The notes: generated from the sequence alone by a model not told the origin. A DNA stretch of 47,732 nt from Selenomonas sp. (GCF_052169755.1 NZ_JBQNBV010000001.1:1-47732); one strand, 5' to 3'; shown: positions 710-18,694, counted from the first letter of the stretch. Program-made: numbers and translations.

Positions 710-920
710 ACTTGTGCAAGGGAAAGCGCAGGTTTTTATTTGAGCATAGTCTATCACAAATCGTAGGCGTTTATCAATGAAAAGCTATATCTTGCTCTTT
801 GGAATAGTGCAGCAGAATGTGTTTTATATGCTTGCGCAAACGATACGCTACATATTTGCGTAAAGCCTTGTGGCTGCAGGGGAGCATGGGCAGCTGTCAT
901 AAGCTGTCTGCAATATGTTA

Positions 921-949
921 TGGATAGGCATTTGCTTTCGTGCTATAAT
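921..949 (+). promoter_or_regulatory. Putative sigma-A promoter with extended -10 at the head of the OM cluster
   Basis: TGGATA (921-926), 17 nt, TGc-TATAAT (941-949), about 70 nt before the ATG at 1017. Confidence 0.6.
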
Positions 950-1016
950 AGGCTTCATCAACATAGTTGCGATGAGAGTCTACGGTGCGTGTGTTTTTTT
1001 GAGGGGCGGCGAGAGT

Positions 1017-2438
1017 ATGGGAAAGACAGTGCTGCATTTGGTTCTGGCTCTGGCTTTAATTTTGGGAGCGGGCAGCGCTGCAGCGGCGCCGGTGCAGACT
1101 TCTGTACCGCGGACGCAGCAGATGGCTGCAAAGACGCTCACGGGTGTGCGCTTCGGTGTAAGCGATGAGTACGAACGCGTTGTGTTTGATTTGACGACCT
1201 TGCCTGCTTACGAGATATATACGGAAAACGATGGACAGACGATCGTCATGTTTCTCTCGGGGGCGCATAGCCGTGCGGTGCAGCCGAAGATTTCAGGCAG
1301 TATAGTTGAAAATGTTCATGTTTCGACTGTGCCGCAGGGAATAAAAGTTGTTCTTAATCTCGCGGCGCCGGCTGCTTACGAGGTCAAGACGCTTGCTAAT
1401 CCGACGCGGCTCTTTATCGATGTGCAGAAAGAGTATGAGCGCATCACGGAGGAAGAGCCTGCACCCGGCTTGAAGCTCTCTACGCTTCGACGCCTTGATG
1501 AACGCGGACGCTTGACGGGCTGGGTGCTTGAGGCTGATCCCGCACGCTACCGTGCTGTGCCCGTGCTCGCGAAAGGCGTTGTTGCAGGCCGCGCTACGGT
1601 CAGTGCGATGTCGGATATGGCGGGAGCCGTCGCTGCCGTCAATGCTTCGTATTTTGCGCCGAGCGGCGACATTCTTGGTCTTTTGAAGATGGATGGCACG
1701 GTCGTTGGTACGACATATTTTCGGCGCAGCGCTGTGGGATTTGATGACGCGGGCAAGACGTTTTTCGGCCCCGTCGATTACAGCGGTACGGTGACGCTCG
1801 GCAGGGTGCGCTTCCCGGTGGGCGGTGTCGACGCCGAGCGTGGTGCGGACAGCCTCGTTATTTACAATCATTATTACAGCGCGACGACGCATACGAACGA
1901 ATATGGGCAGGAGTATATCATCAAGGGCGGCAGGGTTGCTTCTGTCAGCGCATCGAATACGGCGATTCCCCGTGACGGTCTTGTGATCTCGGTGCATGGC
2001 AAGGCGCGCGACGCTTTTGCACAGGTGAAGGTCGGCGATTCTGCGAGGGTGGATGAGCAGATGGGTGCGCCGTGGGAAACTTTGCCGACAGTCATCGGCG
2101 CTGGGCCCATGCTTGTAAAGGATGGCAGAGTCCATGTGACGGCGGCTGAGGAAGAATTCCCGTCCGATATCACTGTTGGACGTGCGCCGCGTACGGCTTT
2201 TGGGGTGACGGCGGATGGGCGCTATCTGCTTGCCGTCGTCGATGGGCGTCAGTCGCATAGTATTGGCTGCACTTTGCAGGAAATGGCGGAGTTCATGCTG
2301 CAATTCGGCGCGGTCGATGCGATCAATTTTGACGGCGGCGGCTCAAGCGCACTCGTTGTCGGCGGTAAGCTGGAAAACAGTCCGTCGGACGGCGCCGAGC
2401 GGGCGGTTGGTTCGGCGCTTGCGCTTTTACCGCGTTGA
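1017..2438 (+). CDS. Exported phosphodiester glycosidase (NAGPA family) with N-terminal AMIN-like domain
   Basis: Signal peptide (MGKTVLHLVLALALILGAGSAAAA), AMIN-like region (ERVVFDL...NPTRLFIDV), NAGPA motifs AAVNASYF, GAGPMLV, RAPRTAFG, VVDGRQ, AINFDGGGSS. Start moved from 915 to the ATG at 1017. Confidence 0.85.
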   Translation: MGKTVLHLVLALALILGAGSAAAAPVQTSVPRTQQMAAKTLTGVRFGVSDEYERVVFDLTTLPAYEIYTENDGQTIVMFLSGAHSRAVQPKISGSIVENVHVSTVPQGIKVVLNLAAPAAYEVKTLANPTRLFIDVQKEYERITEEEPAPGLKLSTLRRLDERGRLTGWVLEADPARYRAVPVLAKGVVAGRATVSAMSDMAGAVAAVNASYFAPSGDILGLLKMDGTVVGTTYFRRSAVGFDDAGKTFFGPVDYSGTVTLGRVRFPVGGVDAERGADSLVIYNHYYSATTHTNEYGQEYIIKGGRVASVSASNTAIPRDGLVISVHGKARDAFAQVKVGDSARVDEQMGAPWETLPTVIGAGPMLVKDGRVHVTAAEEEFPSDITVGRAPRTAFGVTADGRYLLAVVDGRQSHSIGCTLQEMAEFMLQFGAVDAINFDGGGSSALVVGGKLENSPSDGAERAVGSALALLPR

Positions 2439-2494
2439 AGCGGGTTTTGAGTTGCTTCTTTATGGAAAAATCCGTTATAATGGAGGAGATGGAA

Positions 2495-2791
2495 ATGAAA
2501 AGAGTGCTGTTCGCCGGTCTTTTTCTTGGCGTCATGCTGTTCGCGGTCCACGCGCTGATGGCGGGGGCAGTGATGGATGTGAAATCGAGCCTTGCCGGTA
2601 CGGTCACATGGACGGCGGAGCCGGGCAGCACGTTGACGGCGGGCGCAGAAATCGTGCGTGTGCGCACCTTGACGGGCGAAGCGGCTGCGGCGCGTGCTGA
2701 GGATGGCTGCCATGTGAGTGAGGCGCTTGTCGCTGTCGGCGACGATGTTGCCGTCGGGCAAATCGTTGCGCGTGTGGAGAAACAGGAATAA
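2495..2791 (+). CDS. Small exported biotinyl/lipoyl-attachment-like domain protein
   Basis: GGAGG RBS before the ATG at 2495. Hydrophobic N-terminus, then SLAGTV...EPGS...G.EIVRV and LVAVGDDVAVGQIVARV, a barrel-sandwich hybrid pattern. Confidence 0.7.
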   Translation: MKRVLFAGLFLGVMLFAVHALMAGAVMDVKSSLAGTVTWTAEPGSTLTAGAEIVRVRTLTGEAAAARAEDGCHVSEALVAVGDDVAVGQIVARVEKQE

Positions 2792-2835
2792 TATCGGGAG
2801 TCTTTCCGTTTGTACCTTCAGGCAATCTGTACGAG

Positions 2836-5085
2836 GTGATATACTTGCGTAATTTCAAGAAGAAGATGCTTTCTTTGTGCCTTTCCCTGTCGCTTTCGGC
2901 GAACTTGGCAGCGGCGGCGTCCTTGCCGCCGCTCATGCCGCTTTCGGATGTCTATCCGGGCATGGAGGGAACGGCGTATACCGTGGTCGATGAGTCGGGG
3001 GAAATCCTGCCGTTCCATGTCGATATTGTCGGTACTTATGAGGAGGGGTCGTCGACGAACCGCATCATGGCGAAGGCGTCGGGACCTGTCGTGGAGCGTA
3101 CGGGCGGTACGCTCCAAGGCATGAGCGGCAGCCCTGTCTATGTGGACGGGGCGCTTGTCGGCGCACTTTCCGCCGGGATTAAGGGCATGAGCCTCTACAC
3201 GTTTTTCATCACGCCGATCGACGAGATGCTGCCGATATGGAATATGCCTGACTACAAGGCGGCGCATCTGAAGAAGGAAAAGAAGGAAGCGGCAGAAGAG
3301 ACAGTTGCTGACGGCAACGAGGAAGGCGCTGATGCGGGGGAGTCGCAGAAGGATGGGGAAAAGCGCACCAAGCTCGAAAAGGAAGCGCCGCCTGAGCCGG
3401 TGAAGGAAGATATAGAGAAGCCGCGAGATGGGAAGTCTGCCAAGAAGGAAGCGGAAAAAGGCTCGAAGAAAGAAAAGGAAGCAAAGAAGGAAAAGAAGGA
3501 AAAGCCTGCGGCAGATAAGGGGGAAAAGCCTGAGAATGCAGGCAAAAAGGCTGGATCAGCGGATTCATCGAAGAAGCCGCAGCCGGAGAAAAATAGCCCC
3601 GAGGATGCGGCAAAGACGCCGCAGCAGCGCAAGGATGAGTCTGCGAAAGACCAGCCTGCGGAGGAAAAATCACCCCAAGAGCCGCAGAAGCAAAAGCCTG
3701 CGGATTCCGGTGCGCAAGCTCCTGCTGCAAAGAAGCATGAGACGGAACAGAAGTCGGCATTGTATCTTGCAGGTTTCGGCAGCAGCGGCACGTCCTATAT
3801 GGAGGAGAAGCTCTCCGCGCTGGGGTTCAAGGCGGGAGATATGCCTGCTTTTGGGACGCCGACGCGCGATACGCATGTCGTTTATGATGCTGCGCTTGCG
3901 CCGGGCAGCGCCATCGGCGTCGCTGTTTCCTACGGTGATTTTTCCGTCGGGGCGACGGGAACGGTGACGGCGGTCGACGGCAAGCGAGTGCTCGCTTTTG
4001 GTCATCCCTTTCTGCATAAGGGCAATGTCAACTATTTCATGACGGATGCCAAGGTCGTCGGTACGATCAGCGGACCGACGGACGGCATGAAGATCGCGAG
4101 TATCGGCAATATCATCGGACGAATCAATCAGGACAGGGAAGCCGGTGTTGCGGGGATTCTCGGAGCCTTTCCCGAGAGCGTGCCGATGCGCGTGCGTGTG
4201 AAAGATACGTCGCTCGGCTATGATCGGAAGTTCGGCGCACAAATCGCTTACGATGAGGACTTCCTGCCGATTCTTGTGTCGGGCATTGCCTATGCGGCGA
4301 TGGGAAAGACGTCGGACACGGTCGGTGAGGCGACGGCAAGCCTCAAGTTCACGATTCGCACGACGGCGGGAGAGGACGGCAGGATCGAACGCTCGAATAT
4401 GTACTACAATGCCGCTGACGTCGGGCAGGCGTCCGTGGGCGAGCTTGCGCAGATGATGGCGCTCCTCTGTCAGAATGCGGATGAGGAAGCGGATGTGACT
4501 TCGATCGACGTTGACATCGAGATGGAGAGTGCGAGAAAGACGGCGTCTTTGATTTCCGCTGTGCCCGACAAGCCTTCGGCGAAGCCGGGGGAAACGGTGA
4601 ATTTTCGCACGACGATCAAGCCTTTCCGCAAGGATAAGGAGGAGTTGGTGATTCCCTATCGTGTGCCTGAAAGCCAGGCGCCGGGCGTCATGAGTCTCGA
4701 TGTGCGCGGCGGCGGCTTTGTTCCTGTGACGACTGCACTTCTGCAAAATGCGCTCGGCATCGATACGAGCGCTGAAGAGGACAAGACGCAGACGACGGCA
4801 GACAAGGTCAAGCAATTTTTGGAGCTGGGCCGAAACAACGAGATCATCGTCGCGCCGGCAGCCGCCCCGAATTTGCCGCTTTCGCCAGAGGAGAAGAAAG
4901 CGGCGAAGAAGCGTCTGCAAAAGGCGGAGAGTGCGCCGCAGAAGAAAAAGGAAAAGCGTGTCGATCTTTTAGGACAGCAGGCAAAGAAGCGGGGCAATCC
5001 GCGCGAATCGAAGTTTGAAACGGGCTATGTCATAGACAATGTGATTCATGCTTCATTGTTGATTGAGGAAGAGGATAAGAAATGA
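2836..5085 (+). CDS. SpoIVB-like serine peptidase (family S55), exported, with long charged low-complexity insert
   Basis: GGTLQGMSGSPVYVDGALVGAL (Ser motif) and ATGTVT...VLAFGHPF (His motif); signal-peptide-like N-terminus; GTG start after GAGG. Confidence 0.85.
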   Translation: MIYLRNFKKKMLSLCLSLSLSANLAAAASLPPLMPLSDVYPGMEGTAYTVVDESGEILPFHVDIVGTYEEGSSTNRIMAKASGPVVERTGGTLQGMSGSPVYVDGALVGALSAGIKGMSLYTFFITPIDEMLPIWNMPDYKAAHLKKEKKEAAEETVADGNEEGADAGESQKDGEKRTKLEKEAPPEPVKEDIEKPRDGKSAKKEAEKGSKKEKEAKKEKKEKPAADKGEKPENAGKKAGSADSSKKPQPEKNSPEDAAKTPQQRKDESAKDQPAEEKSPQEPQKQKPADSGAQAPAAKKHETEQKSALYLAGFGSSGTSYMEEKLSALGFKAGDMPAFGTPTRDTHVVYDAALAPGSAIGVAVSYGDFSVGATGTVTAVDGKRVLAFGHPFLHKGNVNYFMTDAKVVGTISGPTDGMKIASIGNIIGRINQDREAGVAGILGAFPESVPMRVRVKDTSLGYDRKFGAQIAYDEDFLPILVSGIAYAAMGKTSDTVGEATASLKFTIRTTAGEDGRIERSNMYYNAADVGQASVGELAQMMALLCQNADEEADVTSIDVDIEMESARKTASLISAVPDKPSAKPGETVNFRTTIKPFRKDKEELVIPYRVPESQAPGVMSLDVRGGGFVPVTTALLQNALGIDTSAEEDKTQTTADKVKQFLELGRNNEIIVAPAAAPNLPLSPEEKKAAKKRLQKAESAPQKKKEKRVDLLGQQAKKRGNPRESKFETGYVIDNVIHASLLIEEEDKK

Positions 5086-5852
5086 TGATGCGGCTGTTGG
5101 AGAAAATCGGTTCTTTCGTGCTCGGAATGTTCGAGTGGGTCGGCTCCGTCATTTTGCTCCTTGCCGCTTCTGTCAAAGAGATGCGCCGCCCTTTGCGCCC
5201 GCGCCATATTTTCGCGCAGATGTCGCATCTTGGCGTCGACTCGCTTGCTATCGTTTCTTTGACGATGCTGTTTACCGGCATGGTCATGACGCTGCAGGTT
5301 GCGCATGAGTTCATCCGCTTCGGTGCGCAGTCAACGATCGGCGGCGTCATCGCCATCGCCGTTGGGCGGGAACTCGGACCTGTGCTCGTCGGCGTCGTTT
5401 GTGCCGGACGCGTGGGCTCTGCCATCACAGCGGAGATCAGCACGATGAAGGTTACGGAGCAGATCGACGCGCTGCGCGTCATGGCGACGAGCCCCATCGG
5501 CTATCTTGTCGTGCCGCGCATGATCGCGTGCATGTGCATGGTGCCGCTTCTGACGGTGTTTGGCGATGTCATCGGCATCTTTGGCGGCTGGTTCGTCGCC
5601 ACGCAGTATACCGGCATCGCATCGTACACATTCACGAACTCCATCCAGGTATTCGCCGTGCCGCACGATATTACGGGCGGGCTCATCAAGGCAGCCGTGT
5701 TCGGCGTCGTCATTGCCGTCTTGGGCGCGTGGTACGGGCTTCATGCTCCCGAGGGTGCGGAGGGCGTGGGGCGTGCTACGACGCGCAGCGTCGTAGCAGC
5801 GATTTTCTGCATTTTCTTTTTGAATGTGTTTCTTTCTTTTTTGCTGTATTGA
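5082..5852 (+). CDS. mlaE: MlaE-family lipid ABC transporter permease
   Basis: RELGPVLVGVVCAGRVGSAITAEISTMKVTEQIDALRVM and GAEGVGRATTRSVV signatures. Confidence 0.95.
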   Translation: MMMRLLEKIGSFVLGMFEWVGSVILLLAASVKEMRRPLRPRHIFAQMSHLGVDSLAIVSLTMLFTGMVMTLQVAHEFIRFGAQSTIGGVIAIAVGRELGPVLVGVVCAGRVGSAITAEISTMKVTEQIDALRVMATSPIGYLVVPRMIACMCMVPLLTVFGDVIGIFGGWFVATQYTGIASYTFTNSIQVFAVPHDITGGLIKAAVFGVVIAVLGAWYGLHAPEGAEGVGRATTRSVVAAIFCIFFLNVFLSFLLY

Positions 5853-5876
5853 TATACTTTTGGACGGGGTCGAGAT

Positions 5877-6626
5877 ATGATACGACTGGAAGATGTGACG
5901 AAAACTTTCGCCGCGCATACGGCGGTGCGTCATGTGAGCCTCTCCGTCAAGCGGGGCGAGACGCTCGCCGTTATCGGCGGATCCGGCTCGGGCAAGAGTA
6001 CGCTTCTGCGTCTGATGATCGGTCTGATTCGCCCGACCTCAGGAAAGATTTGGGTCGGCGATGCGGAGATCGCACAGATGACCGAATCCGAGCTTGATGA
6101 GGTGCGGCTCAAAATGGGCATGGTATTTCAGTATTCGGCGCTCTTTGACTCCATGACTGTCGGTGAGAATGTTGCTTTCGGACTGCGAGAGCACAAGAAG
6201 CTCAAGGAGAGCCGGATCGCAAGCATCGTGCGGGAGAAGCTGCATCTTGTGGGACTTGACGGCTCTGAGCACAGGATGCCCGACGAGCTTTCGGGCGGTA
6301 TGAAGAAGCGCGTGAGCTTGGCGCGCGCCATCGCCATCGATCCTGAAATCATCCTCTATGATGAGCCAAGTTCGGGGCTTGATCCCATCACGACGGCGAA
6401 AATCGATGATCTTATCATCACGATGCAAAAGGAGCTTCGCGTGACGAGCGTCGTTGTGACGCATGACATGGCGAGCGCCTGCTATATCGCCGACCGCATC
6501 GCTATGCTCGCCGGCGGTGAGCTCATCGCGCTCGATACGGTCGAGCGGTTCAAACAGATGAAAGATCCGCGCGTGCGTGCGTTTTTCCGCGCGATGGATA
6601 CGGAAGGGAAGGGGGCGGACGTATGA
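5877..6626 (+). CDS. mlaF: MlaF-family ABC transporter ATP-binding protein
   Basis: Walker A GGSGSGKS, MVFQYSALFDSMTVGENV, LSGGMKKRVSLARA, ILYDEP, VTHD; lies between mlaE and the MCE gene. Confidence 0.95.
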   Translation: MIRLEDVTKTFAAHTAVRHVSLSVKRGETLAVIGGSGSGKSTLLRLMIGLIRPTSGKIWVGDAEIAQMTESELDEVRLKMGMVFQYSALFDSMTVGENVAFGLREHKKLKESRIASIVREKLHLVGLDGSEHRMPDELSGGMKKRVSLARAIAIDPEIILYDEPSSGLDPITTAKIDDLIITMQKELRVTSVVVTHDMASACYIADRIAMLAGGELIALDTVERFKQMKDPRVRAFFRAMDTEGKGADV

Positions 6627-7906
6627 CGACGGAAGCGAAGGTGGGCGCATTCACGCTGCTCGGCATCGTGCTCTTGGCGGCGATCTTGCTGCAGTTCGGG
6701 GGATTCTCCTTTTCGACGAGCCGCAGCTATACGATCTATGTGGGGTTCACACAGGTCGTCGGTCTGGCTCCTGAAGCGGATGTGCGCTATGCGGGGGTGC
6801 TCGCGGGCAAGGTCAAGGCCATTGAGCCGGAAGGAACAGGTGTGCGTGTGACGCTTTCTGTGGATCCTGACATCCGAATCCCGCGCGATGCACGCATCAC
6901 GCTGTCGGCGAACAGCGTCCTTGGCGACAAGTTCGTTCTCATTTCTCCGGCGGGATCGAAGAGCACGGAGTATTTGAAGGACGGCGACTTCGTCATCGGT
7001 ATGGATGAGACGAGCATCGACTCTGTGCTGGATAATGTAAGCGAAGCGATTCAGGATGTGCATGATCTGCTCGGCTCCTTGAACGATATCTTAGGCAATC
7101 CACGCATGAAGGAGTCCGTCTTGGGATCGGCGGAGAATGTGCGCGAGGTTACGGCGCATATCCGAGACATGACGTCTGTGATGGGGCGCGTCGCCTTGCA
7201 GAACGAGGGAAGTATGCACGCGATGATGCGTGAGATGCAGGCGATTCTCGCGAACCTTTCGGCGACGACGGAAACTGTGCGCCAGATGGCGGCGGATGTT
7301 TCTGACGGCGGCGCGACGGCGGCGAATCTTCGCCTGACTCTTTTGAACGTCGCCAAGGCGAGTGAAAATATCCGCATGGTGGCAGAAGAGATGCACGAAG
7401 TCACAGGCGATCCGACCGTGCGTGAAGATCTCAAGACGACGATCCATCAGGCGCGCGCCGTCACGGAAAAGGCGAACGAAACCCTGGATAATCTCAGCAG
7501 CATTGAGACGCAGCCGTCGCTCGACGTGCTTTACAGCGGCAAGGAGCGCGACTGGATCACGAACTTCAACGTCGATGTATCAAGGGAAAGCGAGCCGGAT
7601 CGCTTCCTGCGCGTCGGCGTCGAGGATGTCGGCGAAGCGAATGCGCTGAATCTTGAGGTCGGGCGCACCAAGGGCAGGCTGGGGGCGCGCGCAGGGCTGA
7701 TCGCGGGCGATCCGGGCATCGGGCTGGATGCGGCGGTCGGCGGGCGCTGGCACTTCTCCGCTGACGCCTATGATCCGAACGATTTTCGACTGCGGCTTTC
7801 GGCGCAGTATCGTCTGCGTGAGGACACATATCTCATGGGGCAAATTAGAGATTTGAACCGCAGTGAACGGCGTGCCGCCTACTTCGGTCTGCATCAATCA
7901 TTTTAG
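6623..7906 (+). CDS. mlaD: MlaD/MCE protein with long helical region and C-terminal beta-strand (barrel) domain
   Basis: N-terminal TM (EAKVGAFTLLGIVLL), MCE motif GLAPEADVRYAGVLAGKV...LGDKFVLISP, long helical repeat, then amphipathic strands ending AYFGLHQSF. Confidence 0.9.
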   Translation: MTTEAKVGAFTLLGIVLLAAILLQFGGFSFSTSRSYTIYVGFTQVVGLAPEADVRYAGVLAGKVKAIEPEGTGVRVTLSVDPDIRIPRDARITLSANSVLGDKFVLISPAGSKSTEYLKDGDFVIGMDETSIDSVLDNVSEAIQDVHDLLGSLNDILGNPRMKESVLGSAENVREVTAHIRDMTSVMGRVALQNEGSMHAMMREMQAILANLSATTETVRQMAADVSDGGATAANLRLTLLNVAKASENIRMVAEEMHEVTGDPTVREDLKTTIHQARAVTEKANETLDNLSSIETQPSLDVLYSGKERDWITNFNVDVSRESEPDRFLRVGVEDVGEANALNLEVGRTKGRLGARAGLIAGDPGIGLDAAVGGRWHFSADAYDPNDFRLRLSAQYRLREDTYLMGQIRDLNRSERRAAYFGLHQSF

Positions 7907-7918
7907 GGGGAAATCATC

Positions 7919-9490
7919 GTGAAGCAGCCAAAATATTTTTCCAAGAAGCTCTGTGCGCTGGTGTTGGGCGGGTTCGTCTCTTTCGGTCTTGCATCTGCCG
8001 TCTCGGCGCAGCCTCGCTCGCTTGCGCTTGCGGAGAGCGTGGAGCTTGCTCTTGAGAACAACCGCACGATCAAGTCGTCTGTGACCGATGTCGATGCGGC
8101 AAACTGGGCGTACCGTGAAGCGCGCCGCACGGCAGGCCCGAAGCTCACGCTTTCGACGCAGGGCAGCCGTGTCGGCGGCAAGGCGTATGAGCGGTATCCT
8201 TCGGATTATGCTTATCGGAGCAGCGCGGAGCTTTCTTTCCCACTCTACACGGGAGGACGCATTGAAAACGGCATCGAGGCGGCGCGTTACGGCGTGAACC
8301 GTGCGGATCTCGCGCTTGAGGGTGTGAAGCAGGCGGTGCGCTACCAGACGACGGGTCAGTATTTCAAGGCGCTCGAATACCGCAATCTCATCAAGGTCGG
8401 CGAGATGTCCGTCGCAAATTTGAAAAGCCATCTCGACAATGTGAACGCGCAGTATCGCGTCGGTACGGTCGCACGCTCCGATGTACTCGCGTCCCAGGTT
8501 TCACTCGCGAACGCCGAGCAGAATCTCGTAAATATCAAGAATAATTACGATGTCGCCATCGCCGGACTGAACAAGATCATCGGACTGCCGACCGCCACGG
8601 AGCTTTCTCTGGCAGATGAGCTTTCTTATAAGAAGTACGATCTGGCGCTTGCGGACTGCACGGCATACGCGCTCGCACATCGAGCCGATGTCATCGCGGC
8701 GGATTATGCCGTGCGTCAAGCGAACGCCGCTTTGGAAATGACGCGCGGCGCATCCTTGCCGCAGGTCAGTGCGGCGGCGACGCGCACGGTCGGCGGCGAC
8801 AGCTGGTTCTCGAACAATACGGACTCGGCGGACACTTGGTCGATCGGCGTGCAGGCGAGCTGGGCGGCATTTGACAACAACGTGACGGCGGCGCAGGTGA
8901 ATCAGAAGCGTGCGGCGGTGCACAAGATGCAGCAGGCGGCGGAAGATATGCGCGAGCAGGCAGAGTTGGACGTGCAGACGGCGTATCTCAGTCTCTTGGC
9001 GGCAGAGAAGAATATTCGGACGACGAGCGTCGCTGTCGAACGTGCCATCGAGGACTTCAAGATTGCGCAGGTGCGCTACACGGCGGGCGTCGGTACGAAT
9101 CTCGACGTAACGGACGCGGATGAAAAACTCGTCAAGGCGCAGACGAATTACTACGATGCTCTCTACAATTACAACCTCAGCAGGGCGGCGCTCGACCGCG
9201 CTATGGGGCTGCCTGTCGATCTCGACGCCGGTTCTTATCGGGCGAAGGTCGATGCGAAGTATCATAAGGCGGCAGAGGAGCAGGCGGAGATAGCGCTTTA
9301 CCATACGGATGAAGCGGAGGCGAAGATGGCTGCCGAGCAAAAGGCGCTTGATGAAAAGAGTAAACGCAGCGCGGCGAAGGATGACGCCATGATTCCTGTG
9401 ACGCAGGGCGCGCCGGTAAAAACCGCTTCCGTCAAGACGGCGGAAAAGGATGCAGCGGCTGAAGCGGTGCAGGCAGGAAGGTCGATCTAA
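7919..9490 (+). CDS. tolC: TolC-family outer membrane channel
   Basis: Signal peptide, LAESVELALENN, LSFPLYTGG, two OEP repeats (YRVGTVARSDVL; YTAGVGTNLDVTDA), LDRAMG, then an Ala/Lys/Glu-rich tail. Confidence 0.93.
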   Translation: MKQPKYFSKKLCALVLGGFVSFGLASAVSAQPRSLALAESVELALENNRTIKSSVTDVDAANWAYREARRTAGPKLTLSTQGSRVGGKAYERYPSDYAYRSSAELSFPLYTGGRIENGIEAARYGVNRADLALEGVKQAVRYQTTGQYFKALEYRNLIKVGEMSVANLKSHLDNVNAQYRVGTVARSDVLASQVSLANAEQNLVNIKNNYDVAIAGLNKIIGLPTATELSLADELSYKKYDLALADCTAYALAHRADVIAADYAVRQANAALEMTRGASLPQVSAAATRTVGGDSWFSNNTDSADTWSIGVQASWAAFDNNVTAAQVNQKRAAVHKMQQAAEDMREQAELDVQTAYLSLLAAEKNIRTTSVAVERAIEDFKIAQVRYTAGVGTNLDVTDADEKLVKAQTNYYDALYNYNLSRAALDRAMGLPVDLDAGSYRAKVDAKYHKAAEEQAEIALYHTDEAEAKMAAEQKALDEKSKRSAAKDDAMIPVTQGAPVKTASVKTAEKDAAAEAVQAGRSI

Positions 9491-9569
9491 GGCAAAAAAG
9501 CCGCTTTTGAGGTCGCGTATCTGCATATTTCATACAGTCTGACAAATGGAGAATGAGGAGGAAGAGCCG

Positions 9570-12500
9570 ATGAAAAAGGGACGTATCGCTTTTGCGGCAG
9601 TCGTCATCGCGCTCTTCCTTTTTGCGCTCTTTTTCGGCATGGCTCTTTACATTACACGCACGGGCGCCTATGCGGAGGATATGGGCAAGACGATTTCTCT
9701 GCGTGCATCCGAACTTCTTGGCGTACCTGTCGCCGTCGACGGTGTGCGCATCGAGTCCGCGCATAGAATCTCGCTTGAGGGCATTCGCGTGCAGGACAAA
9801 GCGGGAGAAGAGCTTGCCCATGCCGCAGCCGCCGAAGTGGATCTGAGCATCTTCGCTGTCTTTTCTTCCTCGCCCGCCGCCGCCGTATCCCATGTGACGG
9901 TCGTGGAACCTGTATTGTATCTGCGCCAGCGCGAGGACGGCAGTTGGAACGCTGCCGATCTCGTACAGGAGGGAGACACCGCGGGCGATTTTCGCGCTAA
10001 GGTCAGCGTGCAGAAAGGCGCAGCAAGCGTTGTCTTTTCCGGCAAGGAGATCGCTTTTGCGGATATCGAGGCGGAATTTGACTTTGCGGAAGCCTCATCC
10101 GTTGCCGTCGAGGGGCGGGCGACGAGCAAGGGAGCGCCGCTTGTCGTCGAGGGTGAAGTTTCTTCGAAACGGCAGGAGCTTGAGATCACTGGTGAAAATA
10201 TCGATGCGATGGACTACCTTGCATTTTTGCCCGAGGGAACGCTTCCCAGAGAGATCGAGCCGCAGGCGCTTTTCATCGACGAGGCGAAGATGAAGTTCGT
10301 ATGCGAAGGCGGCGACGCATCGCTTGCAGGCGACGTGCGTTTTTCGAATGCACAGGCGCTTGTGTACGGCACGAAGGTCGAAGATGGGCGAGGACTGCTT
10401 CTTCTGGCAGGCGAGGATGCACGCATCTTTTTGCGCGCGCAGACCACAGGGCAAGAGGCGTCTCTGCATGGCAAGATCGCATGGCGAGAGGCGGAGCCGA
10501 GCTTCAATTTCGTCGTGGAATCCGCTGCGTTCGATCCGTCGGCAGTCTTGGCGCAAAGTCCGTTCGAGGGCAAAGTGCGCGTTCTTGCATCCGTTTACGG
10601 TACAGCGCATGACTGGAAAATTGACGGTGCGTGTGAGGCTGCTTCCGGCACGCTTTACGGTCATGCACTGACGGGTGCGAAAGTCAAGGCGCACTTCGAA
10701 AACGGGCTTTTGACGGCGAGCGGCGGAGCGAATGCCTTGGGCGGCGCAGTCGCAGGACAGGGGCTGCTCCATGCGGACGACGGCTCGTACAGCGCACATG
10801 TTGAGGCGAAGGATCTTGCAGGGGAAGAGATCGCTGCACTGCTATCTACCGAGGAGCTTTCCTTGCAGGGACGCTGCGACGCCGATGTCGTGCTTGAGGG
10901 CAAGGGTGCGGATGCAGATGGGCTTCTCGCTTACGGCACTGTCGCCGTCGCGGGGGCGTCGTTTCGCGGCGTCGAGATCGAGCGTGTTTCGACATCCTTC
11001 TTCAAGCAAGGGAAGCTGCTTCATTTTGACAATCTCAATCTTTCTTTTGCGGCGGGCGGCACGCTGGTCGTTGAGGGTGATGTGAGAGACTTTGACAACC
11101 TCGATCTGCGCTTTTACGGCACGGCGCTGCCGCTTGCTCTCGCAGATGCTTTTGTGCCCGAGGCTGCGGCTTCCGGCACGCTCGACATTGCAGGAGCGGT
11201 GCGCGGCGCAGCGGCGAATCCTATGGTCGAGGCAAATTTCGAGGGAGCGGCGGGCAATGCTTTTTGCCAGCCTTTTGATACCTTCCACGGCGCGGTTCAT
11301 GGAAGCGCCGACGGCATTGTGATCGACCATTTCTCTGTGGAACGCGGCGGCAAAGAAACGTGGATCGCCGAGGGCAGCATCGGTCTTACGGGGGCGAAGC
11401 GTCTCGATGTCCGCATCGATTCGATCGGCGCACGCATGGAGGATGTGGCGGCTTTCGTTGCGCCCGACCAGCCGATCACAGGAAACGTCGACAACACGAT
11501 TCATTTCACGGGCACGCTTGACAACCCGTCGGCAGTCGGCTACATTCATTTCTATCGCGGCAGCTACAACGGCTATATCCTCTCGGGTATGGACGGCGAC
11601 TATTATCTGGAAAACGGCGTCGTGCGGCTGCAGGATTTCCACATCTTTTCGCCGCTCGTCGATGTCGACTTGAACGGCGCCGTCACACGGGACGGTGTGC
11701 TCGACCTCTACGCCGACGTACACGACGTAAGTCTCGACCGCTTTGGCAGCAAGCTGCCGTATCCGGTCAGCGGTCATGGCACATTTGCCGGGCATATTTC
11801 GGGTACTCTTGAGATGCCGCAATTCCTCGGCGTGTTCGATGCCAAGACACTCAAGCTCAACGGGCAGGATATCGAAACCGTGCACGGCGAGGTCGTCTTT
11901 GGCGACGATGTGCTGCGCGTGGAAAATACGCATTTCAAGCAAAATGGCGGCAGCTATGCGATGAAGTGCACGGCGAACCTTGAAACGCAGGCGCTCGATG
12001 GCGTTTTGCAGGTGGAAAACGGCGATGTGCGCGCGCTCTTCGCTATCGCGAATCTCAAGAACGATATTCTGGAAGGGCGGCTTGACGGTGCGATTCGTCT
12101 CGCCGGTACGCTGGAAAATCCGCTCGCGGAGCTGGATGCCGTCGTCCGTGAGGGCAAGGCAAGCGGCTATGAGATACGCGATCTCGTGCTCGACGTCAAG
12201 CTTGCTGACCATGTCGTGACGATCCGCGAACTGCACGGCAGACAAGGCGAGGGCGTTTTTGCCGCGCAGGGGCGCATTCCCTTGAACGATGCCGCGATGG
12301 ATGCACAATTTGCGGCGAACGGCGTTGCCGCCGGCATGGTCGCGAAAGCCGCAGGCGCGACTGCCGATGTGCGCGGCACGCTCGATCTCGCCGTGCAGTT
12401 CGGCGGTACGGTTAAAAATCCGAGGGCAAACGCTTCCGTCGAAGTGAAAAACGGCGGTGTGGGCGCATCGACATTTGATGATATGACAGGGCTTTTGAAT

Positions 12501-13904
12501 CTCAAAAACGGCGTCATACATATCGATCAGCTCCTCGTGAAAAAGAAGCTTGGCGATCGCATTTACAGCGCGAACGCCAAGGGAAAGATCCCCGTCAAGA
12601 GCCTGACGGCGGCTTCGGATGAGTGGCTTGACGCGCCCGAGCAGATTGATTTGACGCTGTCCCTTGACCGCGCCGATCTCTCGCTGCTGCCGATCCTCTC
12701 GCCTGCAGTTGATTGGGCTGTCGGCCCGACGAAGGGGAAGGTGCGCGTGACAGGGACGTTGGCGCAGCCCTATTTTGAAGGTGAGATCAGCCTGACGGAC
12801 GGCGCACTGAAACTCAAGGACGTCGCGATACCTGTGACGGAGATGAAGGCGCGTCTGCGCTTTGTCGGCAGTACGATATCCCTTGAGGACTGCACGGGCA
12901 AGATGGGCGCCGGCTCTTATCGCATCACGGGCAGGACGGCGTTCTCCGGTGCGCGGCTGCAAGACTACACGCTCGATTTTACCGCCGATGAACTTGGCGT
13001 CGTCAGCAGCTTCTACAACGGGCCTTTGACGGCTGCGTTTCATATCGAAGAAGGCGAGATGGACGGCGAGAAAATGCCAAAACTCACAGGCAAGGTGCTG
13101 GTCCATCATGCGACGCTTTCGATTCCGTCCATACCCGACAGTGAGAGTGCGCTGCCCAAGATGCTTCTCGACGTCGGGGTGACGCTCGGCGAGCGCGTGC
13201 GGTTTTTCAGTCCGTCGCTCTACGATATGCGTTTGGCAGGAGCCTTCCACTATGGCGGCACGACGCGTCACATTGAGCCGTCGGGCACGATCACCGTCGA
13301 GCGCGGCACGATCACTTACAACAAGACACGCTTTACCATTCGCGACGGCGAGGCATATTTCAATCAGATCGGCTCCTTTTTGCCGAGCCTCACGCTTGAG
13401 GCGGATGCACACTTCGGCAAAGTGCGCATCTTCCTGCACACGAAAGGGCCTATCGGCGCGATGGAGATGCGCCTGACGTCCATGCCCGCGATGAGCGAGA
13501 CGGAGATCCTGCGTCTTTTGACCTTCCAGACCGCCGATTTGCGGACGGAGCAGGCGTTGACATCGCTTCTGAGCTTCGGGCTTTCGATGACGATTCTCGG
13601 CGAGTTGGAAGCGAATGTACAAAACGCGCTGGGGCTTGATGAGTTCCGCATTGCGGGCGAGGATGTGGCGACGACGGATCAAGCGGGGCTGAAATCCGGC
13701 GAGAGGGATCGAAGCCTTGAATACAACTTGGAAGTCGGAAAGTATATCAACGACAAGGTCATGCTGCGCTACAAGCAGGGCATAGGCAACAAGGTGCGCG
13801 AGTTCGGCGTGCGCTACGATTTCAACGACCGCATGAGTCTGTATTGGAATCGCGACGAAGATGCAAACTCGGTCGTCGGTCTTGAAGCGCGTATCAAATT
13901 TTAG
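9570..13904 (+). CDS. tamB: TamB/AsmA-like translocation and assembly module protein
   Basis: About 1440 aa; N-terminal TM anchor, LYLRQREDGSWNAADL AsmA-like motif, repetitive Gly-rich beta segments, DUF490-like C-terminus (LTSMPAMSETEILRLL...LEVGKYINDKVMLRY) ending EARIKF. Start at the ATG at 9570 after GAGGAGG. Confidence 0.9.
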   Translation: MKKGRIAFAAVVIALFLFALFFGMALYITRTGAYAEDMGKTISLRASELLGVPVAVDGVRIESAHRISLEGIRVQDKAGEELAHAAAAEVDLSIFAVFSSSPAAAVSHVTVVEPVLYLRQREDGSWNAADLVQEGDTAGDFRAKVSVQKGAASVVFSGKEIAFADIEAEFDFAEASSVAVEGRATSKGAPLVVEGEVSSKRQELEITGENIDAMDYLAFLPEGTLPREIEPQALFIDEAKMKFVCEGGDASLAGDVRFSNAQALVYGTKVEDGRGLLLLAGEDARIFLRAQTTGQEASLHGKIAWREAEPSFNFVVESAAFDPSAVLAQSPFEGKVRVLASVYGTAHDWKIDGACEAASGTLYGHALTGAKVKAHFENGLLTASGGANALGGAVAGQGLLHADDGSYSAHVEAKDLAGEEIAALLSTEELSLQGRCDADVVLEGKGADADGLLAYGTVAVAGASFRGVEIERVSTSFFKQGKLLHFDNLNLSFAAGGTLVVEGDVRDFDNLDLRFYGTALPLALADAFVPEAAASGTLDIAGAVRGAAANPMVEANFEGAAGNAFCQPFDTFHGAVHGSADGIVIDHFSVERGGKETWIAEGSIGLTGAKRLDVRIDSIGARMEDVAAFVAPDQPITGNVDNTIHFTGTLDNPSAVGYIHFYRGSYNGYILSGMDGDYYLENGVVRLQDFHIFSPLVDVDLNGAVTRDGVLDLYADVHDVSLDRFGSKLPYPVSGHGTFAGHISGTLEMPQFLGVFDAKTLKLNGQDIETVHGEVVFGDDVLRVENTHFKQNGGSYAMKCTANLETQALDGVLQVENGDVRALFAIANLKNDILEGRLDGAIRLAGTLENPLAELDAVVREGKASGYEIRDLVLDVKLADHVVTIRELHGRQGEGVFAAQGRIPLNDAAMDAQFAANGVAAGMVAKAAGATADVRGTLDLAVQFGGTVKNPRANASVEVKNGGVGASTFDDMTGLLNLKNGVIHIDQLLVKKKLGDRIYSANAKGKIPVKSLTAASDEWLDAPEQIDLTLSLDRADLSLLPILSPAVDWAVGPTKGKVRVTGTLAQPYFEGEISLTDGALKLKDVAIPVTEMKARLRFVGSTISLEDCTGKMGAGSYRITGRTAFSGARLQDYTLDFTADELGVVSSFYNGPLTAAFHIEEGEMDGEKMPKLTGKVLVHHATLSIPSIPDSESALPKMLLDVGVTLGERVRFFSPSLYDMRLAGAFHYGGTTRHIEPSGTITVERGTITYNKTRFTIRDGEAYFNQIGSFLPSLTLEADAHFGKVRIFLHTKGPIGAMEMRLTSMPAMSETEILRLLTFQTADLRTEQALTSLLSFGLSMTILGELEANVQNALGLDEFRIAGEDVATTDQAGLKSGERDRSLEYNLEVGKYINDKVMLRYKQGIGNKVREFGVRYDFNDRMSLYWNRDEDANSVVGLEARIKF

Positions 13905-13914
13905 GGGGGACGTC

Positions 13915-14541
13915 ATGAAACTCGAAGAGTATTTGAGCGAGTTGGAAAAAGTTGAGATGCTTTCACTCGAAGAAGAACGCCGACTTTGGCAGGCGTTCAA
14001 GGAGCGCGGTGAAAGGACGGCGAGACAGCGCCTTATCGAAGCGTACCAGCCGCTCGTATTCAAGACGGCTCTTCCGTGGCGCACGAGCGCGAGCATCATG
14101 GACGTCATCCAGGAAGGCACGGTCGGCCTCATCGAAGCGACGGAGAGCTTCGACTGGCAGCGCGGCGTCGCATTCAGCCTCTTCGCCGTCCATCGCATAC
14201 GCGGCAGGATGCTGAACTTCCTGCAAAGGGAAGGGAAGCGTGACGTCGCCTGCATGGATGCGCCGCGAGCTGACGGCAGAGAGCCGTGGGAACTTCTGCC
14301 CGACACGGGGCTTTCCGTCGCCGAGCAGGCGGAATTGGGACTCATGACGAAAGAACTTCATCGGGCGCTCGCGCGACTGCCGCAGAAAGAGCGTCTCGTC
14401 TTAGAGGGCGTTTACTTAAAGAGCGAGGCGGCGGCGAAGCTCGCCGATGTGCTCGACGTGAGTGCGGCGCACATCTACCGCCTGCAAAAGAGCGGCATAC
14501 GCCGCGTGCGCGGTATGCTCACGCGCTTTATGCGCTTTTGA
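13915..14541 (+). CDS. Sigma-70 family alternative RNA polymerase sigma factor
   Basis: Region 1.2-like MLSLEEERRLW, region 2 DVIQEGTVGLIEATESFDWQRGVAFSLFAVHRIRGRM, region 4 LPQKERLVL...LADVLDVSAAHIYRLQKSGIRRVR; GGGGGA RBS. Confidence 0.92.
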   Translation: MKLEEYLSELEKVEMLSLEEERRLWQAFKERGERTARQRLIEAYQPLVFKTALPWRTSASIMDVIQEGTVGLIEATESFDWQRGVAFSLFAVHRIRGRMLNFLQREGKRDVACMDAPRADGREPWELLPDTGLSVAEQAELGLMTKELHRALARLPQKERLVLEGVYLKSEAAAKLADVLDVSAAHIYRLQKSGIRRVRGMLTRFMRF

Positions 14542-14555
14542 GAGGGGGAAAGACG

Positions 14556-15140
14556 ATGGCGGAGGAAAGGGAACGGCTCTGTGCGCACATCAAAGCGGCA
14601 AAGGATTGGCTCGGGCGTGCGGAATCTTCTCTGGAAAGGGAAAACGACATCAAGGGCGGCTTGAGCCTCATGCTCGCAGAGGCGGAGCTGCAACGTGCGC
14701 GTGAAACGCAAAGGATGAAGCGTCTCGCGCAGGTTCTTGCGCCGACGCTCGCGCTCTTTTTCGCTCTGGGCGGCGTCTTTCTTTATCGTGCGTTGGATTC
14801 GCCGGCGCCGTCTGTGGAGCAAAGTTACGCCGAAAGTGCACCGAAAAAAGATCATACGCCCGCAGCGCAGGAAGCGCAGGCATCGCCTGCTGCATCAGCC
14901 GCGGATGCTCCGCACGGGGCGGCGTCGGCTTCTTCCGTGCTGTCGGAGCAGCCTGTCGTCACTTCTGCTCCGGCAAAGGAAGCAAAGATGTCGGCTGACG
15001 TGCAGCCGGCGCATCCTGTACAGGATGCGCCGCAGGTGGAGCCGGAGCAGGCGAAAGTTGCAGCCGCTGACACCGCGTCCCCGCCTGCACACGATCTGCA
15101 GAAGCTCATGCTTTCTGCGGGACGCATCCTCAGAGAATGA
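14556..15140 (+). CDS. Single-pass membrane protein directly after the sigma factor (candidate anti-sigma)
   Basis: About 55-aa helical N-terminus, one TM (LAPTLALFFALGGVFLY), Ala/Pro/Ser-rich linker, short terminal helix LQKLMLSAGRILRE; GAGGGGG RBS 14 nt after the sigma stop. The function is inferred. Confidence 0.7.
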   Translation: MAEERERLCAHIKAAKDWLGRAESSLERENDIKGGLSLMLAEAELQRARETQRMKRLAQVLAPTLALFFALGGVFLYRALDSPAPSVEQSYAESAPKKDHTPAAQEAQASPAASAADAPHGAASASSVLSEQPVVTSAPAKEAKMSADVQPAHPVQDAPQVEPEQAKVAAADTASPPAHDLQKLMLSAGRILRE

Positions 15141-15188
15141 TTGCTCTTATAATTCGATAAAACTCGCCGATAGGTCTTTGCGTCCCCC

Positions 15189-15216
15189 TTGACCTCAACG
15201 GCATTCATGGTAAACT
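15189..15216 (+). promoter_or_regulatory. Putative distal bamA promoter (TTGACC-16-TGgTAAACT)
   Basis: TTGACC 15189-15194, TAAACT 15211-15216, with TG extension. Confidence 0.55.
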
Positions 15217-15295
15217 ATACGTACAAACGTCCACTTTGTGGACATTGTACGTCGCCCTTACCAGAAAGCAGCCAATCAGTCTGCACCCTTCGGGT

Positions 15296-15323
15296 TTGAC
15301 TTCTTGGGCTTTCATGGTAGAAT
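15296..15323 (+). promoter_or_regulatory. Putative proximal bamA promoter (TTGACT-16-TGgTAGAAT)
   Basis: TTGACT 15296-15301, TAGAAT 15318-15323, with TG extension; about 40 nt before the ATG. Confidence 0.65.
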
Positions 15324-15364
15324 AAAGAACATACCGAAGATCATGGGAGGTTGGAAACTTGGAT

Positions 15365-17275
15365 ATGAAAAGAACGCGAATCCTTGCTGGAGCCGCAGCG
15401 TTTGCTGTGGGGGCTGCCGGCTTTTCCGCAGACGTTTCTGCGGCTGTTGCCGTCGTGGGTACGATGCAGAACGATCAGGAGATGAAGAATGCTGCCGCTG
15501 ATGCGGCGGAGATTCATCGGGTGGAAACGCAGTCTGCGGACGAGAATGCCGCCGCCGCCAAGGCGATGCCAAAGGATGCGCGTGTTGAGGCTTGGGAGGC
15601 TGTGCGCCCCGACGAGCGCAAGGTTGAGGAAGATGCGAAGATCGCTGACGGCAAGACCATCGTTGACATCGTCGTCGATGGTGCGGGCGCTGACACGATG
15701 GCGACGGCGCGTGCGGCTCTCGTGCAGCGCGTCGGCGATGCCTATGATGCGCAGAAAGCGCAAAATGACCGTTCCGCCATCTTCGACACAGGCTATTTCT
15801 ACGATCTCTACCCATCGTGGCAGTACGTTCCCGAGGGCGTCGTCCTCACCTATCATGTCTTGGAAAATCCCGTGCTGAAATCGGTGAAAATCGAGGGCAA
15901 CACGGTGGAGACGACGGAAGATCTCGAAAAGCTCATCACGCTCAAGACAGGGCAGGTGATGAACAGCCGCGAGCTGCAGAAGAATGTTTCCGCCATGCAG
16001 GAAAAGTACAGGGCGGACGGGTTCATTCTCGCCAAGATCGAGGATATGAACATCGACGCTTCGGGAGAGCTTACGCTCAAAGTCAACGAAGGAAAACTTG
16101 AGGGTTTTGCTGTCAAGGGCAATACAAAGACGAAGGATCGTGTCATCCTTCGGGAGATGCGCCTTAAGATCGGCGAGCCTTTCGACGTGAAGAAAGCGCG
16201 TCGGAGTATGCAGCGCATCTACAATTTGGGATTCTTCGAAGATGTGAATATGAAGCTCAATCCGGGCGAAGCGCCGGGGTCTGTCATCTTGGAAGCGGAT
16301 GTCGTCGAAAAGCGCACGGGCAACTTCGGCATAGGCGCGGGTTACAGCTCCTCAGACGGCTTCGTCGGTATGCTCAACGTCGGCGATACGAACTTTCGCG
16401 GCATGGGCGATGCGGTGAGCCTGCTCTATGAGATGAGCGGCGACGATACGGATGCGCACGGCTTCGTATTCTCCTATCGCCGTCCTTGGCTGGACAGCAA
16501 GGAGACGACGGGATCGCTTCGCATTTACAACCGCACATACGAGTACGACGACTACGATACCGAGGGCAACCTGCAGGAAGAGTACATGAGGAAGTACTCG
16601 GGCGCTGAGATCACGCTCGGTCGTCCGGTCAACGAGTATTCGACGAACTTCATCACACTGCGCAACCGCACGGACACCTATGTGCATCATAAGAGCGGCG
16701 CCAACCGCAGCACGCCGCGCTGGAAGGCGTGGCGCGATGCGAACTTCGGTACGACGCGCAGCATTACGCTGCAGCGTGTGACCGATACGCGCGACAATAT
16801 CTACAACCCGACATCGGGCGGGCGCATGAGCCTTGAAGCGGAGTTTGCAGGTTTTGGCGGCGACTTCAACTATCAGAAGTTCACGGCAGAGGACAAGCGC
16901 TTCTTCAAGGTCGGCAGGGCGCAGACCATCGCTTTGCGCGGTCAGCTCGGCTATGCGCGCGGCTCGATTTCCGAGTCGAACCTCTATAAGCTCGGCGGAC
17001 AGGATTCTTTGCGCGGCTACCGCGACGATCAGTTCCGAGGTACGCACCTCTTCCTCGCGACGGCTGAGTATCGCTTCCCGATCGTGAACAAGGTGCAGGG
17101 CGCAGTCTTTACCGACTGGGGAAATGCGTGGAGCGGCGAGCGTTTGCCCAATACGATCAAGGGCAGCGTCGGCGTCGGTCTGCAGCTTGAGACGCCGGTC
17201 GGTCCGATTCGTCTCGATTACGGCCGCGGCTCGGACGGCGGGCGTGTGCATTTCAGCGTCGGCGGCTCCTTCTGA
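15365..17275 (+). CDS. bamA: Omp85/BamA outer membrane protein assembly factor
   Basis: Signal peptide, three POTRA repeats (e.g. VKGNTKTKDRVILREM...YNLGFFEDV), GNFGIGAGYSS strand 1, LGGQDSLRGY (VRGY-like motif), ETPVGPIRLDYG, C-terminal FSVGGSF. Confidence 0.95.
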   Translation: MKRTRILAGAAAFAVGAAGFSADVSAAVAVVGTMQNDQEMKNAAADAAEIHRVETQSADENAAAAKAMPKDARVEAWEAVRPDERKVEEDAKIADGKTIVDIVVDGAGADTMATARAALVQRVGDAYDAQKAQNDRSAIFDTGYFYDLYPSWQYVPEGVVLTYHVLENPVLKSVKIEGNTVETTEDLEKLITLKTGQVMNSRELQKNVSAMQEKYRADGFILAKIEDMNIDASGELTLKVNEGKLEGFAVKGNTKTKDRVILREMRLKIGEPFDVKKARRSMQRIYNLGFFEDVNMKLNPGEAPGSVILEADVVEKRTGNFGIGAGYSSSDGFVGMLNVGDTNFRGMGDAVSLLYEMSGDDTDAHGFVFSYRRPWLDSKETTGSLRIYNRTYEYDDYDTEGNLQEEYMRKYSGAEITLGRPVNEYSTNFITLRNRTDTYVHHKSGANRSTPRWKAWRDANFGTTRSITLQRVTDTRDNIYNPTSGGRMSLEAEFAGFGGDFNYQKFTAEDKRFFKVGRAQTIALRGQLGYARGSISESNLYKLGGQDSLRGYRDDQFRGTHLFLATAEYRFPIVNKVQGAVFTDWGNAWSGERLPNTIKGSVGVGLQLETPVGPIRLDYGRGSDGGRVHFSVGGSF

Positions 17276-18623: not shown

Positions 18624-18694
18624 GTTTATCGTTGGGTAATAGAAGAAGGATTGTCTGGCAATCTTCTTCCAAAGAGAAAAGGAGACTAAAAGAA

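Follow-up and report, generated by a model that had tools for sequence, protein, structure and literature searches.

Here, we analysed a 47,732-nucleotide stretch of Selenomonas sp. DNA (GCF_052169755.1 NZ_JBQNBV010000001.1:1-47732; hereafter, the window), with a focus on an alternative sigma factor and a membrane protein, SonB, whose genes lie between tamB and bamA. Positions 915-22669 are occupied by the known outer-membrane cluster, a co-directional run in the order phosphodiester glycosidase-like gene, small lipoyl-like gene, S55 protease gene, mlaEFD, tolC, tamB, sigma, sonB, bamA, a gene of 432 amino acids (aa; sonA), the skp genes, lpxD and lpxL; intergenic gaps are at most 55 bp across 915-15140, with 218 bp ahead of bamA. 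A first-pass annotation of this DNA had joined the S55 protease, the sigma factor and the membrane protein into a candidate envelope-sensing circuit. All three open reading frames are indeed found on the + strand at the coordinates it gave, the sigma and membrane protein genes lying between tamB and bamA and running in the same direction as S55. Across genomes, however, sigma, SonB and SonA are the set that is kept or lost jointly, and its third member is SonA, not the protease, as follows from the presence and loss that SonA, unlike S55, shares with sigma. The sonA gene sits just outside the coordinates of the first-pass annotation and was missed there, even though it tracks the sigma-SonB pair. 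The features on which the argument rests are as follows.

2836-5085, + strand: exported S55/SpoIVB-like serine protease (signal-like N-terminus; PF05580 match over residues 45-112 only)
13915-14541, + strand: alternative sigma-70-family factor, 208 aa (Sigma70_r2 and r4 matches, Pfam/NCBIfam)
14556-15140, + strand: SonB gene (one hydrophobic segment, residues 57-75, plus an Ala/Pro/Ser-rich linker)
14556-14723, + strand: SonB residues 1-56, cytoplasmic two-helix hairpin, predicted anti-sigma domain (conservation, predicted complex)
14724-14780, + strand: single transmembrane helix of SonB, residues 57-75, predicted N-in/C-out (hydropathy 1.92)
14781-15140, + strand: periplasmic low-complexity linker of SonB and its conserved terminal helix of ~20 residues (alignment)
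15359-17275, + strand: bamA (Omp85; Pfam Omp85 and POTRA)
17275-18573, + strand: SonA, three POTRA-like domains and a barrel, signal peptide (model, Foldseek, profiles)

The names SonB and SonA were given by Beskrovnaya et al. 2026 (PMC13018214) to the products of the genes flanking bamA in Acetonema longum; this and the other papers cited by accession are drawn on in part. There, SonA is described as three POTRA domains with a 10-stranded barrel, and SonB is classed as a putative outer-membrane lipoprotein. The A. longum locus (F7NM31 to F7NM21, in the order S55, mlaE, mlaF, mlaD, tolC, tamB, sigma, sonB, bamA, sonA, skp) corresponds to the window gene for gene, and we equate the two SonA proteins by gene order and architecture, not by sequence alignment. 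The model of the window's SonA (mean pLDDT, the predicted local distance difference test, of 91.3) has a 10-stranded outer-membrane barrel and matches BamA/TamA in Foldseek (E 2e-11). SonA thus carries POTRA-like domains, but its 10 strands and the absence of an Omp85 Pfam match set it apart from 16-stranded Omp85 barrels. The main text of PMC13018214 is silent on the sigma gene, which appears as F7NM25 in a supplementary table, and no anti-sigma role is proposed in the parts of that paper covered here; its authors do note that SonA and SonB are both missing from V. parvula and A. fermentans.

Among 301 evenly drawn Bacillota genomes, Omp85 was detected in 73 and the sigma factor in 22, 21 of which are Omp85-positive, the exception being a genome of 350 contigs; SonA is strongly matched in 22 genomes, plus one weak match. 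Within Negativicutes, sigma and SonA are present in the identical 126 of 151 genomes, and the SonB hairpin was found in 18 of 80 sequences searched, exactly those with sigma. A whole SonA without the sigma-SonB pair was never seen in these samples, the nearest case being a weak match in genome G141. These counts carry no P value, and kin genomes are not independent. Among named relatives, SonA occurs in Anoxybacter fermentans and one Halanaerobiales genome. As for G141, a 185-aa gene directly after bamA (L108:8495-9052), with neither sigma nor SonB, weakly matches the barrel part of SonA only, and is possibly a SonA remnant or an unrelated small barrel.

The order tamB-sigma-sonB-bamA-sonA is kept in all 20 of the Negativicutes loci compared, which were chosen for carrying sigma. 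Where the module is lost, genes are gone on either side of bamA, and eight loci (L081, L101, L102, L103, L107, L226, L227 and L229) are reduced to tamB-bamA-skp. A quick BamA tree (88 rows, SH-like approximate likelihood ratio test only) puts the Negativicutes without the module at ~7 positions, of which one is a long-branch pair and one rests partly on an 89% complete genome; the window's BamA clusters with that of S. sputigena in this tree, and among named sequences the window's sigma is matched most closely by Selenomonas records. In three genomes, sigma has moved outside the cluster and is intact, with sonB-bamA-sonA still in place. A separation with retention is also seen in G409, in which tamB-sigma and sonB-bamA-sonA are on different contigs (L232 and L236).

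The distribution of the protease is a different one. Full-length S55 is encoded in 72 of the 73 Omp85-bearing Bacillota, as opposed to sigma in 21 of the same 73. The phylogenetic profiling put forward with the first-pass annotation, which itself had named independent phyletic patterns as the outcome that would speak against its circuit, therefore splits the proposed trio: sigma and the membrane protein are co-distributed, while the protease is independent of them. S55 is present in all 52 Omp85-positive genomes lacking a sigma match (including G315, where sigma is cut by the contig start) and in 20 of 20 sigma-less loci, and it lies >350 kb from sigma in two near-complete genomes, G019 and G318. 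V. parvula, with tamB and bamA consecutive (Vpar_0526/0527), still has S55 (Vpar_0521); the protein was found in the outer-membrane proteome by Poppleton et al. 2017 (PMC5491611), who flagged it as conserved and associated with the outer membrane, with no role assigned. Given this distribution, we consider it improbable that S55 is devoted to site-1 cleavage of SonB, in the way that DegS acts on RseA or SpoIVB acts in the sigma-K checkpoint, although it is an exported protease with conserved Ser, His and Asp, shares the cluster, accompanies sigma in 20 of 22 genomes of the phylum sample (both exceptions being fragmented) and rises by 1.5 log2 during A. longum germination, when mlaEFD does not (PMC13018214). 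Two further points against such a role are that S55 has no PDZ match in Pfam and that it co-eluted with BamA in A. longum, as one of two proteins, with 3 peptides, in an experiment from which the authors reported no major partner (PMC13018214). Most likely, S55 is a general BamA-associated periplasmic protease that at most cuts SonB as one substrate of several. It is a near-universal companion of BamA in diderm Firmicutes and a candidate quality-control protease, a role that we infer. Shorter S55-like proteins (frames of 366-445 aa) that match the protease part only are found in G173, G208, G319 and G342, all without Omp85.

The S55 protein has 749 aa, with a Lys/Glu-rich insert and a C-terminal domain of ~290 aa; the insert, which separates the two protease halves (residues ~140-303, window 3250-3750), is of low confidence and much longer here, most relatives being proteins of ~600 aa. 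S97, H390, D368 and D433 are invariant in 18 homologues. Like SpoIVB (PF05580, PDB 9LNF), S55 is exported and has a Ser-containing barrel of trypsin-like fold with the GMSGSP motif, and its residues 30-138 superpose on residues 311-424 of 9LNF (Z 9.1, root-mean-square deviation 2.8, 106 aligned), a match to the C-terminal barrel of SpoIVB and HtrA-type proteases. True SpoIVB has His before Ser in 4 of 4 cases, whereas 43 of 46 homologues have the Ser motif (S97) ahead of the His motif (H390), with the His pattern unmatched in the other three, so the barrel order appears to be reversed. The His half aligns with the His region of SpoIVB in register but weakly (hhalign probability 0.6%, E 0.096), the whole model yields only half-domain trypsin-like Foldseek matches with weak E-values, and TIGR02860 (SpoIVB) scores 30 bits against a cut-off of 305. 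S55 is thus likely, with the weak alignment of the His half as a caveat, a circularly permuted, PDZ-less paralogue of SpoIVB that has an extra C-terminal domain and is found in non-sporulators. That S55 has no counterpart of SpoIVB Asp363 says little, because the catalytic role of this Asp is doubted by the structure paper (PMC12502668). True SpoIVB coexists with S55 in three spore-forming-type Negativicutes; no true SpoIVB was found in genome G000.

The sigma factor retains region 1.2, sigma2 and sigma4, with domain 3 deleted: the sigma2-sigma4 spacing is 14-25 residues in 12 family members versus 69-78 in FliA, SigF, SigG and RpoD, and 27-29 in SigE and SigK. Its top PDB matches are WhiG and FliA, with the alignment skipping the sigma3 stretch. 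In a tree of 34 rows based on joined sigma2 and sigma4 segments, the family is a single clade (support 98/97), sister to FliA/WhiG (95/94) and separate from the sporulation sigmas. No subfamily cut-off among the NCBIfam profiles is reached. For FliA/WhiG themselves, TIGR02479 gives 68 bits against a cut-off of 189.6, and domain 3 is missing. As in extracytoplasmic function (ECF) sigmas, domain 3 is lacking, yet the region 1.2 match is kept, a comparison based on domains, as the tree holds no ECF or SigH rows. On its sequence, we regard it as a FliA/WhiG-related, group-3-derived and unclassified sigma factor. An identity as SigE, SigK, SigF or SigG was considered and rejected (49-78 bits, far under the cut-offs, and separate clades in the tree). 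The earlier designation as an alternative sigma factor is retained on the strength of the Sigma70_r2 and r4 matches. Of two possible qualifiers, 'sporulation-related' disagrees with the tree and the subfamily scores and 'ECF-like' seems a poor fit, and an origin from sporulation-related parts finds no support for a sigma that is sister to FliA/WhiG.

In SonB, the hairpin of ~50 residues upstream of the membrane helix is conserved, with L19, A22, L40, A43 and E44 invariant in 49 homologues. Among 122 distinct homologues, the transmembrane helix begins at median residue 64, its hydropathy is at least 1.6 in 104, and the charge before the helix exceeds that after it in 115, a positive-inside bias. 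It is followed by a low-complexity linker of ~105 aa in the family and a terminal helix motif, which is present in 120 of the 122; the two copies without it are a frameshifted one and that of G070, a genome having sigma and SonB but no SonA. A single-pass protein with a small N-terminal domain, as first described, is what the one hydrophobic segment indicates, but the supposedly flexible C-terminal tail ends in this conserved helix. A lipobox within the first 45 residues and an N-terminal hydrophobic window were each found in none of the 122 homologues, and a lipobox-like match at or past the helix in only 6. Because there is no lipobox, no N-terminal hydrophobic stretch and a positive side before the helix, SonB looks like an N-in bitopic inner-membrane protein, and the family alignment contradicts the published outer-membrane lipoprotein label. 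This bears on a very unlikely alternative, in which SonB, as a lipoprotein, and SonA are structural assembly helpers, and sigma is a bystander kept through linkage. Such roles would fit a putative outer-membrane lipoprotein that is co-expressed with BamA, as SonB is listed in PMC13018214, but the same paper reports that the Lol pathway is absent, sigma stays intact after leaving the cluster, and the predicted complex described below passes its controls.

Searches of Pfam, NCBIfam, PDB and ESM Atlas returned no family for SonB or SonA and no PDB relative of note for SonB. None of 49 SonB members has an anti-sigma Pfam match, and in none of the 122 homologues did we find the HxxxCxxC motif of zinc-binding anti-sigma (ZAS) domains or, within the first 70 residues, the cyclic di-GMP motif of RsiG, E(X)3S(X)2R(X)3Q(X)3D (PMC8325347). 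The idea that the hairpin is a sequence mimic of the beta-prime clamp helices was discarded, as the SonB profile showed no match to this part of the genome's own RpoC.

The multimer model suggested along with the first-pass annotation, sigma against the N-terminus of the membrane protein, was run with SonB residues 1-56. The predicted complex scored 0.83, 0.83 and 0.82, whereas all three controls scored 0.00; contact agreement between runs was at least 97% and the partner pLDDT at least 69. The score mark applied is reached by 116 of 157 solved complexes and 2 of 215 mismatched pairs, counts that are only roughly valid with the alignments used here. On sigma, the predicted interface comprises residues 5-10, 34-45 and 65-77 (regions 1.2-2.2), the face that is bound by the beta-prime coiled coil according to PMC4598750. 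The prediction supports, rather than shows, binding of SonB to sigma. Inter-protein co-variation (74 triples, effective number 50) between the SonB hairpin and sigma placed no top pair on the predicted interface; because this positive control failed and the analysis had no power, the co-variation results for SonA and BamA were discarded. Based on co-occurrence, the predicted N-in topology and the predicted complex on the core-binding face, sigma and SonB are probably a cognate inhibitory pair, and the sigma/anti-sigma part of the original proposal is to this extent supported.

Upstream of sonB, at least 100 bp separate it from sigma in 104 of 122 loci. In the 83 non-redundant long-gap loci, a bipartite motif, GYNARAAWT-N13-gGAnTATA, is located ~30-45 bases ahead of the sonB start, with a score of at least 9 in cross-validation in 68 of the 83 and in 3 of 5 held-out loci. 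The motif is not sigma-A-like. In A. longum, mean counts step from 3110 for sigma to 24448 for sonB (data of PMC13018214), in line with a promoter ahead of sonB, and in germinating versus sporulating cells sigma is up by 2.8, sonB by 3.2, bamA by 3.2 and sonA by 2.6 log2 (PMC13018214). Among sigma-less genomes, 4 of 27 reach the motif threshold before bamA, a result that is uninformative because the motif falls inside the deleted stretch. In the window, the family's motif is replaced by two sigma-A-like promoter matches before bamA.

15189-15216, + strand: sigma-A-like promoter match
15296-15323, + strand: sigma-A-like promoter match

All 6 loci of the window's genus have a sigma-A-like site ahead of bamA, compared with 2 of 100 loci in which the sigma-sonB gap is long. 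Elsewhere in the cluster, such a site stands upstream of tolC (L031-L048) in 13 of the 17 loci with sigma but in none of the 7 without it, which suggests a tolC-tamB-sigma transcription unit.

We propose, with the considerations for and against evenly balanced, that the membrane anti-sigma SonB, sigma and SonA constitute a switch in which sigma release reports outer-membrane protein assembly. The SonB hairpin would cover the RNA-polymerase-binding face of sigma and hold it at the inner membrane, and the linker would span the periplasm, so that the terminal helix could engage SonA, the POTRA barrel of the outer membrane. If outer-membrane assembly lagged, the SonB-SonA contact would be lost, SonB would be exposed to proteolysis, and sigma would be freed. 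Binding of the terminal helix to SonA is, in our view, just as credible as its absence. More tentative is the step in which unassembled SonA would leave SonB open to periplasmic and then intramembrane proteolysis, while the notion that freed sigma reads GYNARAAWT-N13-gGAnTATA before sonB-bamA-sonA in most Negativicutes falls only slightly short of even. The steps linking SonB, SonA and proteolysis are modelled on Dma1 (PMC10927553) and FoxA/FoxR (PMC11637429), although the module would be a member of neither system. In a more specific and rather unlikely version, SonA would be a reporter client of BamA: the POTRA part of folded SonA would hold the SonB tip and keep the flagellar-type sigma off, and the absence of outer-membrane proteins, as in a germinating spore, would switch sigma on and thereby bamA.

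Several observations weigh against this proposal. The SonB-SonA contact rests on co-loss and one natural case, G070, and this genome keeps sigma and SonB in the absence of SonA. A helical hairpin lying on sigma2 looks much like many solved complexes of sigma with beta-prime or with an anti-sigma, a likeness that may inflate the complex score. The co-expression in A. longum is not specific, as tamB (3.1 log2) and tolC (2.4 log2) are induced as strongly (PMC13018214). As to the promoter, the -10 box of the sonB motif resembles the sigma-H sites of the same genomes; the window, with a 14-bp sigma-sonB gap, has no motif, nor do other short-gap loci, all of which keep sigma; the motif is also absent in 3 of 3 genomes with relocated sigma; and no genome-wide enrichment was found in G000 (101 sites versus 99-109 in shuffles). 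Since the motif is absent here though sigma is kept, either sigma has other targets in this genome or the motif is not its promoter.

In another scenario, the protein would be a sigma-like decoy, or would be tethered to SonB without directing transcription, and the sonB motif would be a weak sigma-H promoter. The -10 box and the spacing of the motif do match those of the sigma-H sites ahead of dnaG, G000 has a SigH, and the motif can vanish while sigma stays. Against this stand the strong conservation of the DNA-binding regions of sigma (2.3-2.4 and 4.2; 43 homologues) and the strict sigma-H pattern, which is met with in 27 of 30 dnaG regions versus only 3 of 83 sonB regions, and we consider this scenario most unlikely. 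The dnaG sites (L191-L220) include those of non-sporulating Negativicutes, and similar sites precede mlaE in some loci.

A closer competitor, though still an unlikely one, accepts sigma and SonB as cognate but takes SonA for a mere regulated output (e.g. an accessory barrel of the barrel assembly machinery, BAM) that disappears along with its regulator and that SonB does not touch, the SonB tail sensing something else, such as the POTRA domains of BamA, TamB or unfolded outer-membrane proteins. G070, with sigma and SonB but no SonA, fits this scenario, as do the resemblance of SonA to a small BamA and its self-insertion into liposomes (PMC13018214), and co-variation was unable to separate SonA from BamA as the partner. 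The same genome also provides a counterpoint, because its SonB has lost the terminal helix precisely in the absence of SonA, although BamA and TamB are retained; moreover, apart from the weak match in G141, no whole SonA is kept without the pair in our samples. We retain the switch with SonA as the putative partner of SonB as our working model.

Further features of the cluster are as follows.

5082-13904, + strand: mlaE, mlaF, mlaD, tolC and tamB, the known outer-membrane cluster core (profile matches; PMC10665443)
18632-20770, + strand: two skp/ompH genes around a 381-aa gene (Pfam OmpH for 18632-19156 and 20327-20770)

The 381-aa gene (window 19185-20330), at the skp2 position, is coiled-coil-like and has no OmpH Pfam match. 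The AMIN/phosphodiester-glycosidase gene and the small exported lipoyl-like gene (window 915-2791) lie upstream of S55 in many loci, sigma-less ones included, and look like additional core cluster genes of unassigned role. Further downstream, glycosyltransferases, FkbM methyltransferases, a nucleotidyltransferase, an HMGL-like gene and a short-chain dehydrogenase gene (window 34234-47669) likely form a surface glycan locus.

Our literature search, with most subscription papers outside its scope, found no envelope-stress or outer-membrane regulator of diderm Firmicutes and nothing that deals with this sigma or with a permuted SpoIVB; the parts of Antunes et al. 2016 (PMC5007114) covered here mention neither sigma nor SpoIVB. 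The anti-sigma role suggested here for SonB, with SonA as the partner in the outer membrane, would give two recently named proteins testable functions, with SonB L40, A43 and E44, sigma residues 65-77 and the candidate promoter as handles, and it would add a membrane-anchored anti-sigma for a FliA-type sigma. These roles also relate to a question left open in PMC13018214, namely how an outer membrane is rebuilt in germinating spores that have no BamA to start with. In the more specific and rather unlikely version, with SonA as a reporter client of BamA, diderm Firmicutes would have a BAM-capacity sensor of their own, a split and non-homologous counterpart of Dma and sigma-E that relies on a group 3 sigma and whose age would take in both Negativicutes and Halanaerobiales.

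A close architectural parallel to the proposed switch is Dma1/Das1 of Bacteroides (PMC10927553), which combines a sigma-binding cytoplasmic N-terminus, an inner-membrane helix and a long disordered periplasmic part with an outer-membrane barrel at the far end. In Dma, however, a single chain includes the barrel as well, and its sigma is an ECF factor, whereas here the barrel is encoded by a separate gene, sonA, the sigma is FliA-related, and SonB ends in a short helix; the likeness is one of architecture only, and we claim no homology. The logic proposed here is also that of FoxA/FoxR/FoxI (PMC11637429), where the periplasmic domain of a barrel binds the C-terminus of the anti-sigma and shields it from proteolysis, but that system involves a TonB-dependent receptor, a folded anti-sigma C-domain, an ECF sigma and an iron signal, none of which is seen here.

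The sigma that controls bamA and skp in E. coli is sigma-E. Its anti-sigma RseA is bitopic, blocks the beta-prime coiled-coil site on sigma2 (PMC4598750) and serves an envelope function, features that are predicted or proposed for SonB as well. Yet sigma-E/RseA/DegS/RseP comprises a group 4 sigma, an anti-sigma domain of four helices and a protease sensor with a PDZ domain, as opposed to the group-3-derived sigma, the two-helix hairpin of ~50 residues and the lack of a dedicated protease tracking the pair in our case. Finally, FliA/FlgM and WhiG/RsiG represent the nearest sigma family, with a helical anti-sigma placed over sigma2; unlike SonB, FlgM and RsiG are soluble, SonB has neither a FlgM Pfam match nor the RsiG motif, and its sigma is devoid of domain 3. 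A probable membrane anti-sigma of no known family would here be paired with a FliA-derived sigma and a POTRA barrel.

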